A DNA stretch of 64,000 nt, from the NCBI GenBank assembly GCA_965218295.1, contig CBDCKN010000010.1, forward strand, positions 18,304 to 82,303, given 5' to 3'. A program made the translations under genes and the position numbers. Shown one piece after another: positions 30,236 through 34,448 of the stretch. Positions within the stretch are counted from its first letter, which is position 1. Each line of letters begins with the position of its first letter. The DNA is from Longimicrobiales bacterium. GTDB taxonomy: Bacteria; Gemmatimonadota; Gemmatimonadetes; Longimicrobiales; Gaopeijiaceae. Below the pieces are notes generated by a model. That model ran no database searches. It had not been told where the DNA came from and saw nothing but the letters and a program-made list of their open reading frames with translations.

Positions 30236-32716
30236 ATGCCGATTGAAGCCAGGGCCATGAACGTCTCCGTTCGCAGGATCTTCCCGCTGATCGTCGTAGC
30301 CTCGCTATTCTCACCATCTCTCAATGCACAGGACGGCCCCGGCAGGATTGCAGGATTCGTCGAGACCACCGAGGACGGCTCGGCCCTTGCTGGAACCTCG
30401 GTCGAAGTGGTGGGCACATCCCTTCGCGCCCTGTCCGATGACGCCGGACGCTACGTGCTGAGGGGGATCCCTCTGGGCACGGTCTCGCTGCGGTTCGTGC
30501 GCCTCGGTTATTCGACCCTCACCAAGACGGTGACGGTGGTCGACGACAAGGTGCTCCGGGTGACCGCCGAGATGGGTGCCGGACCGATCCGCCTCGACCC
30601 GATCAGCGTCCTCATGGAGCGTACCCGGATGATCGGCGACCCCCTTGGCATCGACGAAATCCCCGGGGCTGCGCACGTGCTCGTCGCGGCGGACCTGGAC
30701 TCTCCGGCCTTCGTGTTCGACAACATCCATGACTTCCTGCGCCTCGTTCCGGGGGTGAACGTCCAGGACGAGGACGGGTTCGGGCTTCGTCCCAACATCG
30801 GGCTCAGGGGGACGGGCGTGGACCGGAGCTCCAAGATCACCCTCATGGAGGACGGCGTGCTCATCGCCCCGGCCCCCTACACGGCTCCGTCCGCCTACTA
30901 CTTTCCGGTGGCCGGGCGCATGGAGGCCGTGGAGGTCCAGAAGGGATCGAGCCAGGTCAAGTATGGTCCCCGCACCATCGGTGGCGCGATCAACCTCGTC
31001 TCGGCGCCTATCCCCGATCGGTTCTCGTGGTTCATGGAGGGAGCCGCAGGTGGGAACGGCACCCTGAGGGGTCACGGGCGGATCGGTGACTCCGGCACAC
31101 GCTTTGGGTGGCTCCTGGAGGCGTACTCGCTGGAGACCGACGGCTTCAAGGAGCTGGCCACCGGCGCGGGGACGGGCTTCGACGTGGCCGACTTCATGGG
31201 GAAGGTTCGGGTCAACAGCGATCGTGAAGGCCCCTCGTACCAGGAGCTGGAGCTCAAGCTCGGTTACACCGACGAGGAGTCGGCAGAGACCTATCTCGGC
31301 CTTACGGACGTGGACTTCACCATGAATCCACTGTACCGATACCCGGCCTCCGAGTCGGATGTGATGAAGGCCGAGCACTCGCAGATTCAACTCCGGCACT
31401 TCTGGACCCGCGGTGCCGTCGACGTAACGACGACGGCGTATCGCAATGACTTCTTGCGGAACTGGTACAAGCTGGAGAGCGTGCTCGGCACAGGCATCAG
31501 CAAGGTCCTGGATGCTCCTGACGAGAACGCGCCGGCCCTCGCGATCCTGCGCGGGGAGGGTAGCGACCCCGACGCACTCAGGGTTCGGGCGAACAATCGT
31601 GAATACTTCGCCGAGGGTGTGCAGTCGACGGTGGGCCTCGGCCTCGGCCGTCATGAGCTCGAGCTGGGCCTTCGGTTCCACCGTGACCAGGAGGACCGCT
31701 TCCAGTGGGAGGACGCGTTCCAGATGCAGGGCAGTACCATGGTCCTCACCACCCCTGGTGAGCCTGGGAGCCAGTCCAATCGGGTGAGCTCGGCCGACGT
31801 GCTTGCCTTCTTCGTGCAGGACGAAGTCGAGCTCGGACGCCTGATCGTGACTCCCGGGGTCCGGTTCGAGCACATCAACTTCGCCCGAACGGACTACGCC
31901 AGCGACGACCCCGCCCGCACGGAGCCCACCCGGGTTCGGGAGAACCGGGTGAATGCGTGGATCCCGGGAATCGGGCTCTCGTATCGTGCCGCCCCTGCCC
32001 TCAACCTCTTCTGGGGTGTTCACAAGGGGTTCGGACCGCAGGGACCCGGCGCCGCCGAGGCCACGCGCCCGGAGAGCAGCGTCAACTACGAGTTCGGTGG
32101 GAGGTGGCGGAACTCGGGGTTGGCCGCCCAGGCGAGCGCGTTCTACAGCGACTACACGAACATCCTCGGACGGGCGACGCTGGCCACCGCCGAAGCTGGC
32201 ACGGGCGAGGCGTACAACGGAGGGGACGCCGCGGTAGCGGGTGTCGAGGTCTCCGTGGACTACGATTTCGCCTGGGGACGCGACTGGGCGGGTAGGGTGC
32301 CCCTACGGATCACCTATACGCATACGCGTGCCGAATTCCGGTCTTCCTTCGACTCCGACTACGGTCCCTGGGGCGAGGTTGAGATCGGCGATCGCCTCCC
32401 CTACCTCCCCGCGCACCAGATGAGCGGGAGCATCGGGTACGACCATCCGCGGTGGAGCGTCACGCTCTCCACGATGGCGTCGGGCGCTATGCGAACGCAG
32501 GCCGGTCGAGGTCCCATCCCAGAGGGGGAGGGCACGGACTCGTACGTGGTATTCAACCTGGCCGGGGAGCTGCAGCTCGACCGCAGGGGGACCGTGTTCG
32601 CCGGCGTCCAGAACCTCTCGGACGAGCGGTACAGCGTGGCGAGGCGCCCGGCTGGGCTCCGTCCCGGACTGCCCCGGACTCTGATGGCGGGTCTCCGCGT
32701 GACTGGAGTGCGGTAG
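30236..32716 (+). CDS. TonB-dependent receptor, FecA-like
   Basis: Signal peptide, plug PGVNVQDEDGFGLRPNIGLRG…RSSKITLMEDG, beta-barrel. Confidence 0.92.
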   Translation: MPIEARAMNVSVRRIFPLIVVASLFSPSLNAQDGPGRIAGFVETTEDGSALAGTSVEVVGTSLRALSDDAGRYVLRGIPLGTVSLRFVRLGYSTLTKTVTVVDDKVLRVTAEMGAGPIRLDPISVLMERTRMIGDPLGIDEIPGAAHVLVAADLDSPAFVFDNIHDFLRLVPGVNVQDEDGFGLRPNIGLRGTGVDRSSKITLMEDGVLIAPAPYTAPSAYYFPVAGRMEAVEVQKGSSQVKYGPRTIGGAINLVSAPIPDRFSWFMEGAAGGNGTLRGHGRIGDSGTRFGWLLEAYSLETDGFKELATGAGTGFDVADFMGKVRVNSDREGPSYQELELKLGYTDEESAETYLGLTDVDFTMNPLYRYPASESDVMKAEHSQIQLRHFWTRGAVDVTTTAYRNDFLRNWYKLESVLGTGISKVLDAPDENAPALAILRGEGSDPDALRVRANNREYFAEGVQSTVGLGLGRHELELGLRFHRDQEDRFQWEDAFQMQGSTMVLTTPGEPGSQSNRVSSADVLAFFVQDEVELGRLIVTPGVRFEHINFARTDYASDDPARTEPTRVRENRVNAWIPGIGLSYRAAPALNLFWGVHKGFGPQGPGAAEATRPESSVNYEFGGRWRNSGLAAQASAFYSDYTNILGRATLATAEAGTGEAYNGGDAAVAGVEVSVDYDFAWGRDWAGRVPLRITYTHTRAEFRSSFDSDYGPWGEVEIGDRLPYLPAHQMSGSIGYDHPRWSVTLSTMASGAMRTQAGRGPIPEGEGTDSYVVFNLAGELQLDRRGTVFAGVQNLSDERYSVARRPAGLRPGLPRTLMAGLRVTGVR

Positions 32717-32972: not shown

Positions 32973-33710
32973 ATGCTTGCCGACACCAGTATCCCGTTTC
33001 ATCCCGTGAGTGTGTGGGCGGACCGCTTTCCATGGGTGGTGGCCGGCATTACCCACGCGGGCTCCGAGAACGATCCCTTCGACCTCCGGCTCTTTGGGGA
33101 GTCTCCACACCCCCGGGCGGACGATCGTTGGCGAGCCGTTCTGGAGGCCACAGGCTTCGGCACGGTCGCCCACGCTCGTCAGGTCCACGAGACCAGGGTG
33201 GCCGTGCACGACGCTCTTCCGCGGGGGGTACACGTCGAGGGCGGTCCGGCGGACGGGCATGCCACATCCACGCCCGGGGTGCTGCTCGCGGTGACGGTGG
33301 CCGACTGCGTGCCGGTCTACCTCGTGGACCCGGAGCGGCGAGTCGTGGCTCTTCTTCACGCTGGGTGGAGGGGCACAGCGGGCGGCATCATGGCCGAGGG
33401 TGTCCGGACGCTCCACACACAGTTCGCCTCGGACGCTGCCCACCTACACGCGCATCTCGGCCCGGCCATCTGCGGGGCCTGCTACGAGGTCGGCCCGGAG
33501 GTCTGCGACGCCCTGGGGCTGCCAACGCGGTCCGGTCCAACGCCGGTGGACGTACGAGCCCTTCTGGTCTCGCGGGCCCGCTCACTGGGTGTCCAAGAGA
33601 GCCGCATCACGGTTTCGGAGCACTGCACTCTGTGTGGAACCGCCGGTTTGTTCTCACACCGGGCAGGGCGATCCGAGCGCCAGGCGGCGCTGCTGGGAAT
33701 TCGGCCGTGA
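32973..33710 (+). CDS. pgeF: PgeF/YfiH (purine nucleoside phosphorylase/polyphenol-oxidase-like) family
   Basis: QVHE, VTVADCVPV, HAGWRG, GPAICGACYEVG, FSHR. Confidence 0.9.
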   Translation: MLADTSIPFHPVSVWADRFPWVVAGITHAGSENDPFDLRLFGESPHPRADDRWRAVLEATGFGTVAHARQVHETRVAVHDALPRGVHVEGGPADGHATSTPGVLLAVTVADCVPVYLVDPERRVVALLHAGWRGTAGGIMAEGVRTLHTQFASDAAHLHAHLGPAICGACYEVGPEVCDALGLPTRSGPTPVDVRALLVSRARSLGVQESRITVSEHCTLCGTAGLFSHRAGRSERQAALLGIRP

Positions 33711-33901
33711 ACAGGGCGGTGGGACTCTGTGAGAAGTGCGCCTTCGTCCGACTGGTCGAGAACGAGCGGGCGTCTATCTTTTATCTTTGTGAGCGATCCT
33801 TCGAGGACTCGTGCTATCCCAAGTATCCACCGCTCCCCGTGCTCGCTTGCCCGGGCTTCGAGGTGGCGGCTAACGAACACGAGGGGGAGGTGGAAGAATG
33901 A
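33707..33901 (+). CDS. Small Cys-rich protein (64 aa), not called separately in the ORF track
   Basis: MNRAVGLCEKCAF…FYLCERS…YPKYPPLPVLACPGFE; GTGA overlap with pgeF and ATGA overlap with the next gene. Confidence 0.75.
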   Translation: MNRAVGLCEKCAFVRLVENERASIFYLCERSFEDSCYPKYPPLPVLACPGFEVAANEHEGEVEE

Positions 33902-34362
33902 GCGATCCGTTCTACGTCGCCCGGGCTGACGTTGGGAGGCTGTCTGGGGTCCATCGACGGGCTCTCCTGGAGGATGGCACCCAGATCGACTTCGGCGTGC
34001 ACGGACCGGTGAAGGCCCACTACGGATTGGACTCGGAGCCCAACCTGCCCCTGCCCGTGGACTATCTGGTGGCGTCGGCGGCCGGCTGACTACTCGGGAC
34101 TCTTATCGGCGCACTGGAAGTGCGCGGGGTCAAGTTACCGAGCGATCACATCCGCTCGAGTGCCGAGGGCTTCAACGAAATGCGGGACAAGATCCCGATC
34201 CTCACCAAGATCCATGTCCACCACACCATCCAGATTCCCGAAGGGACCCGGGAGATCGTGGACAAGGCGCTGGAGCGGCACGTGGACAAATGCCCGACTG
34301 CCCAGAGCCTGAAGGGTGCGGTGGAGATCACCTGGACTGCTGAGGTCGAGGAGGGTCAATAG
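33898..34362 (+). CDS. OsmC/Ohr-family selenoprotein (Sec at TGA 34087-34089), 154 aa
   Basis: Two in-frame ORFs joined by one TGA: PVDYLVASAAG-U-LLGTL…KCPTAQSL; hairpin directly downstream. Confidence 0.85.
34098..34131 (+). promoter_or_regulatory. Putative bacterial SECIS hairpin
   Basis: Upper stem gcgcact/agtgcgc with GGA loop 26 nt after UGA; lower stem gactc/gggtc. Confidence 0.75.
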
Positions 34363-34448
34363 GAACCCCGTGACCGGCGGCCGGGTTTGGGGTACACTGG
34401 AGCAACGAGATCCCGCTTCTCATCTCCTTCATCACCCGGACGAGCTGC

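Follow-up and report, generated by a model that had tools for sequence, protein, structure and literature searches.

Two short open reading frames (ORFs) on the forward strand of the window (the whole 64,000-nt stretch of DNA analyzed here) are very likely one gene for an Ohr-like protein of the OsmC/Ohr fold, in which an internal UGA, to judge by comparison with related genes, is read as selenocysteine (Sec) at the predicted active site. An earlier note on this DNA had joined ORFs 33898..34089 and 34120..34362 into a hidden selenoprotein gene, and the two do lie in one common frame with the TGA at 34087–34089 (+) as the sole internal stop. The read-through gene (33898..34362, +) encodes 154 amino acids with U64 and C132. 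YLVASAAG*LLGTL surrounds the TGA and KCP occupies residues 131–133, its Cys132 being encoded by a TGC at 34291..34293 (+) that falls in the resolving-Cys column and is matched by Cys in homologous loci. A Shine-Dalgarno-like GGAGGT was read from the sequence at 33886..33891 (+), 6 nt 5' of the ATG. The split annotation that had been foreseen for such a gene is common: 84–99-amino-acid C-terminal fragments made up 95 of the 120 protein matches listed (157 found), and one protein cluster holds both 63- and 85-amino-acid pieces.

Assembly error does not explain the TGA, because a 1,563-nt contig from an independent assembly (run X2) carries the identical codon; this contig spans 33600–34477 and differs from the window at a single letter, 33812. 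The same TGA codon is present in locus L008, which is 95% identical to the gene. RNA contigs from a related strain (runs X19 and X20) cover 33813–34050 and 34203–34409 at approximately 96%–97% identity; they do not span the TGA and are no proof of transcription.

Codon 64, the putative Sec64, sits in the peroxidatic-Cys column of the family, where TGA and Cys alternate. TGA occupies this column in all of the best 80 of 110 GTDB loci, nearly all of which are titled as Gemmatimonadota (three are labelled Deltaproteobacteria). Metagenome loci were collected with an alignment of the Cys forms alone as the query, and TGA loci still predominated (TGA in 77 and TGC in 3 of the best 80 of 100). Across these 160 loci, down to approximately 48% identity, a stop at the column is always TGA and never TAA or TAG (157 loci), and the remaining three have Cys codons. 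The pairing of Sec with Cys that the earlier note had relied on was also borne out at the protein level: Cys stands at column 64 in 25 of 25 full-length homologs among the 120 matches listed (157 found). The in-frame UGA is therefore aligned with the Cys of homologs, as is required of a selenoprotein. The Cys132 column holds Cys in 79 of the best 80 of 110 GTDB loci (one was unaligned) and in all of the best 80 of 100 metagenome loci. Gly at U+3 and Thr at U+4 are shared by 160/160 of these GTDB and metagenome loci, giving the motif U-x-x-G-T; Asp55 is likewise invariant (160/160), and the column preceding it holds Val in 159 and Ile in 1.

A bacterial SECIS upper stem-loop, which had been proposed from its 7-bp stem and G-starting loop, was confirmed at 34109..34125 (+) by folding, conservation and covariation. 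The stem pairs GCGCACT (34109–34115) with AGTGCGC (34119–34125) around the loop GGA (34116–34118), and the spacing from TGA to loop is 26 nt. Published criteria for bacterial SECIS elements, as given in the Figure 2 legend of PMC13188914, are a loop of 3–9 nt, a stem of 4–16 bp, G in the first two loop positions, a spacing of 16–37 nt and a minimum free energy of −7.5 kcal/mol or lower; the hairpin has a 3-nt GGA loop, 7 bp, 26 nt and, folded alone, −9.7 kcal/mol. A 64-nt stretch folded at −25.2 kcal/mol (z −3.29) and was equalled by 0 of 200 shuffles, with shorter stretches weaker (49 nt equalled by 11/200 and 36 nt by 8/200). In this genome (65% GC), 61 of the 281 TGA sites that look coding passed a loose hairpin filter, so the hairpin by itself is weak evidence and needed comparative support; the argument from the hairpin alone was set aside, and its weight rests on its conservation.

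At least six of the seven pairs together with a GG-starting loop are present in 135/135 distinct 60-mers downstream of the TGA, and all seven pairs in 128/135. These counts come from related sequences and are not independent events. A codon-aware null, in which synonymous codons were re-drawn from the family's own usage in 2,000 draws, gave a mean of 25.6 and a maximum of 41 for at least six pairs plus GG loop, and a mean of 10.5 and a maximum of 23 for all seven pairs. Two-sided changes were found at three stem pairs (GC to CG in 5, CG to TA in 2 and AT to GC in 20, with the intermediate GT in 9). Codons +7 to +13 are frozen, and GCA, a rare Ala codon, reaches 82% in the stem compared with 6% expected or elsewhere. 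Shifting the 3' arm lowered pairing from 0.99 to 0.18–0.71. Among the TGC genes, 3/3 have C as the first base of the loop and two keep only 5 of 7 pairs, although the number is small. Taken at the nucleotide level, these patterns indicate that the hairpin is under selection.

The Sec machinery implied by such a gene is present: selA, selB, selD and a tRNA-Sec with UCA anticodon were all found over curated cut-offs in the genome assembly, which is 90.7% complete. Its selB includes winged-helix domains, and its selD has an in-frame TGA of its own. TGA is the commonest stop, terminating 280 of 511 long ORFs, which rules out genome-wide UGA recoding. Among 401 genomes of the phylum, 141 have a match to the protein, 114 of them at E < 1e-15 (own genome included), and TGA is present in all 150 matches listed (68 more unlisted). 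The 27 weak matches were set aside as other OsmC families; they are split 17 to 10 between selA-positive and selA-negative genomes. selA was found in 114/114 genomes with a family member, and members in 0/75 selA-negative genomes. This co-occurrence overstates its significance, as selA has a background of 81% (matches in 326/401 genomes, 319 over cut-off) and related genomes do not count as independent cases; an unpublished genome (G155) underlies one of the selA counts, and no claim depends on it. Sec use thus looks common across Gemmatimonadota. A term search of the available text of two reviews (PMC9312934 and PMC13188914) returned no mention of the phylum.

Membership of the Ohr/OsmC superfamily is well supported by score, fold and redox residues. 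PF02566 matched residues 51–146, across the TGA, with 53.6 bits (cut-off 27.5, E 3e-14). The AlphaFold2 model, built from a 26-row alignment with U replaced by C, had a pLDDT of 95.7 and placed residue 64 in the middle of a helix (residues 53–75). All Foldseek rows shown were OsmC, Ohr or Ohr-like proteins, the top one being Ta0195 (PDB: 2onf; E 5.9e-10, TM 0.79/0.86). Residue 64 matches, in a gap-free stretch of alignment, C57 of T. thermophilus OsmC (PDB: 1ukk), C132 matches its CP cysteine, and U64 and C132 are spaced by 68 residues. The catalytic Glu of Ohr/OsmC presumably corresponds to the Val54 column rather than to the next one (Asp55 here). In alignments to 1ukk, 1nye and 1qwi, Val54-Asp55 (34057..34062, +) places this Val in the Glu column, ten residues N-terminal of Sec64, and the column holds Val or Ile in 160/160 loci where 1ukk and 1nye have Glu. 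The catalytic Arg lies in the beta1-beta2 loop in Ohr and in the loop preceding helix 1 in OsmC; in the alignment, the OsmC Arg falls on a variable loop of the selenoprotein, where no equivalent is assignable. R9 and R20 are invariant among close homologs. The earlier label of OsmC-family selenoprotein consequently holds for the PF02566 superfamily and fails for OsmC/Ohr proper, and the protein likely groups by its sequence with the "Ohr-like" proteins, with peroxidase as a predicted function. The Sec64 and Cys132 columns of the proposed Sec/Cys peroxidase-like enzyme also stood, but peroxidase activity is only likely, because the catalytic Glu column holds Val or Ile.

The wider family was defined as 740 clusters at E ≤ 0.001, of which the best 150 were read. 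In these it keeps G33, R76 and mostly both Cys, with H35 in 55/75, D55 in 70/75 (E in 5) and H128 in 51 of the 64 rows extending that far. Two database representatives have W at column 64, probably a product of gene calling under another code.

OsmC-like selenoproteins (COG1765/PF02566, motif UxxT) were predicted in 2005 and 2008 from Sargasso Sea and GOS data, as given in the available text of PMC1088965 and PMC2398784, and are listed again in that of the reviews PMC9312934 and PMC13188914. Like them, the protein described here belongs to the PF02566 fold family, has Sec where a redox Cys would stand and is encoded with a bacterial SECIS downstream; compared by the tabulated motif, it has UxxGT rather than the published UxxT. 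The best NCBIfam match is the OsmC-related (seleno)protein NF041052, also an OsmC-like selenoprotein family, but the score was 25.1 bits (E 1.3e-5) against a cut-off of 95, the 25 natural Cys homologs reached at most 34.5 bits on the same model and none of the 401 phylum genomes reached the cut-off. TIGR03562 (19.1 bits, cut-off 85.8) and TIGR03563 (score too low) were rejected as well. Ohr/OsmC proteins of known structure (E. coli 1nye and 1qwi, T. thermophilus 1ukk and P. aeruginosa Ohr 1n2f) share the fold (Foldseek E approximately 1e-7 to 1e-8, TM approximately 0.7) and a redox pair approximately 60–70 residues apart; they are only 14%–22% identical to the selenoprotein, which has Sec for the peroxidatic Cys, Val for Glu and no assignable catalytic Arg. 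The Ohr-like proteins (Ta0195, 2onf; YhfA-type, 1ml8) resemble it in keeping the Cys-pair positions while lacking Arg and Glu (PMC5384416, available text), but 2onf is 17% identical; the protein described here has GxHG, Asp55 and His128, which are specific to its family, as well as selenocysteine and a SECIS. Literature searches by title and start of abstract returned no paper specific to the clade, which supplementary tables may list, and term searches found "OsmC" absent from the main text of PMC12013277 and bioRxiv 10.1101/2022.07.06.499078. What has been known since 2005 is OsmC-like selenoproteins as such; the Gemmatimonadota branch is widespread, is not captured by the curated model and sits in databases mostly as fragments.

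The gene is the last of three overlapping genes. The first is a PgeF/YfiH-like gene (PF02578; 32973..33710, +), with a homolog in 40 of 80 loci, and the second is an unannotated 64-amino-acid ORF (33707..33901, + from a chosen GTG start), with a homolog in 42/80; these neighbor counts come from targeted tblastn over the best 80 of 110 GTDB loci with 3-kb flanks. The start of the small ORF overlaps the pgeF stop and its own stop overlaps the ATG of the osmC-like gene. It has four Cys in the pattern CxxC...C...YPxLPVxxC and matched no Pfam family, and its look-alikes in the Atlas belong to unnamed clusters from several phyla. A divergent sucA lies within 3 kb in 31/80 GTDB loci and usually abuts pgeF in related loci. 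In the window, a TonB-dependent receptor gene (30236–32716, +), found in 2/80 related loci (3-kb flanks), stands between sucA and pgeF and may be a lineage-specific insertion. The genome has lipoyl-bearing E2-type genes; the one TGA of an E2 match is its terminal stop. The sucA neighborhood gives a faint hint of lipoyl reductants, but the synteny may be incidental since sucA is divergent and split off by the receptor gene.

In a second paralog group (31%–41% identity), 20/20 hand-picked loci share the TGA at this column. The same hairpin is present in 17/20; the other three (L201–L203, from genomes G084, G396 and G256) have lost it and have another GG-loop hairpin 18 nt 3' of the TGA, 8 nt closer than the standard one, possibly a SECIS rebuilt in a new register. 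The paralog in the same genome (L220, 35% identity; genome G000, contig C12, 148468–148012, minus strand) keeps the TGA and hairpin and has a frameshift in its C-terminal half. The strains differ at this point: the frameshifted allele recurs in one run, and two runs have two additional bases. A more distant OsmC-like group in the same class (L227–L233, from genomes G179, G039, G359, G261, G258, G007 and G346), which we take to be YhfA-type, has the motif ALGA/S-TGA-T/M-SMT with the in-frame TGA in 7/7 and its own conserved hairpin, TCGCGC-TGTAY-GCGCGA. Two other OsmC-like genes that appeared to hold two TGA codons have one internal TGA and a terminal stop. Elsewhere in the genome, six TGA read-throughs fall in redox, metal-binding or methyltransferase families and are further candidate selenoproteins, each matching Pfam across the TGA (L234–L239; G000, C3:514260+, C9:489123−, C6:731+, C9:485703−, C9:541654+ and C13:600738+). 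Their types are AhpC/TSA (UPWC), HMA (UDGC), CMD/AhpD (CHYU), ResA-like (UAGC), DsbA-like (UPWC) and a SAM methyltransferase with CU.

Phylogenetic analysis placed Cys forms among Sec forms. In a FastTree of 233 rows, 27 close Cys forms lay inside a 183-row Sec clade. A second tree (LG+G4, 155 columns, Sec coded as C) was built from 67 rows picked after FastTree (18 Cys, 44 Sec and 5 outgroup); on it, Cys requires four changes (bootstrap 4–5), of which the starred branches force two. The AU test rejected a single Cys clade (p = 0.009) and a single Sec clade (p = 0.006). This suggests that Cys forms are nested in the Sec clade at least twice, as Sec-to-Cys reversions. Repeated reversion is likely the simpler reading, because the Cys forms are nested and the same hairpin is common to the paralogs; the alignment is short and the outgroup mixed. 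Bacterial Sec-to-Cys reversions are rare and mostly concern FdhA and SelD in the available text of PMC1794560 and PMC13188914, and remnant SECIS elements in reverted genes have already been described (PMC1794560, available text).

That the UGA of codon 64 is decoded as Sec is, from the comparative evidence, very likely. A true stop, in a pseudogene or between two separately translated fragments, would suit the 63- and 84–99-amino-acid products of gene callers and the predominance of TGA among stops, but it is very improbable given the absence of TAA and TAG, the Cys codons in the three remaining loci and the maintenance of both halves in frame around a break that falls mid-helix at the catalytic column; the hairpin also appears selected, and the supposed GTG start at 34120 lies within its stem. 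Reading of UGA as Trp, Gly or Cys through a changed code or suppressor tRNA could draw on the two representatives with W and is equally improbable, since TGA ends most long ORFs, homologs have Cys at the column, the tRNA-Sec is present and the family tracks selA; some Cys insertion at UGA under low selenium may nevertheless occur. An error that turned TGC into TGA would find some room in an incomplete assembly with a frameshifted C12 paralog, yet the identical codon in the run X2 contig, in L008 and in 79 others makes its probability negligible.

We consider it probable, with good but not full confidence, that the gene is Sec-decoded and encodes an Ohr-like redox enzyme whose Sec64 would alternate between the free selenol and a selenenylsulfide with Cys132. 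The UGA would be decoded by SelB, docked on the hairpin that lies 26 nt 3' of it. By analogy with Ohr/OsmC chemistry (PMC5384416, available text), Sec64 would attack an organic hydroperoxide, Cys132 would resolve the intermediate into the selenenylsulfide, and a dithiol, most likely the lipoyl arm of a 2-oxoacid dehydrogenase, would re-reduce it; the protein would be a homodimer. In the same source, Ohr/OsmC proteins are dimeric peroxidases with peroxidatic and resolving Cys, assisted by Arg and Glu and served by lipoyl reductants, and Ohr-like proteins are those without Arg and Glu, whose activity is disputed, one having been inactive as a peroxidase in one laboratory and active in another. 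Dithiol-dependent hydroperoxide reduction is the predicted physiological activity that we somewhat favor. The substrate is the weakest inferred part, because the triad Glu of Ohr/OsmC is missing and Asp55, His35, Arg76 and His128 are conserved instead.

A selenoprotein with a thiol-disulfide, sulfur-transfer or metalloid-handling center and its own His/Asp site, and not a hydroperoxide reductase, would account for the Val/Ile in the Glu column, for the G33, H35, D55 and H128 kept by the wider family and for the top structural match to the uncharacterized Ta0195, a T. acidophilum protein classed as Ohr-like (PMC5384416, available text). We regard this as unlikely: the characterized relatives named in the available text of PMC5384416 are peroxidases, the 68-residue spacing of the Cys pair matches the family hallmark, and the neighborhoods of the best 80 GTDB loci showed no conserved adjoining sulfur- or metal-pathway genes. 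More tentatively than the hydroperoxide-reducing enzyme, and as a possibility we lean against, the proteins may form an undescribed, ancestrally Sec-using Ohr-like subfamily that spans Gemmatimonadota, often as two paralogs in a genome, uses a His/Asp site of its own in place of the Arg-Glu pair, acts on a substrate other than simple hydroperoxides and has undergone approximately four independent Sec-to-Cys reversions, each accompanied by loss of the SECIS loop G.

These data leave the established mechanism of Sec decoding unchanged. They correct a systematic annotation error, in that the curated OsmC-selenoprotein model overlooks a gene carried by 114 of the 401 Gemmatimonadota genomes sampled, and they provide a bacterial SECIS of unusual clarity, with covarying stem pairs and with matched Cys genes minus the loop G. 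If the approximately four reversions are true, they would run counter to the reported bacterial trend from Cys to Sec. With one scaffold occurring naturally in closely related Sec and Cys versions, the advantage that Sec brings to an Ohr-like enzyme could be tested.
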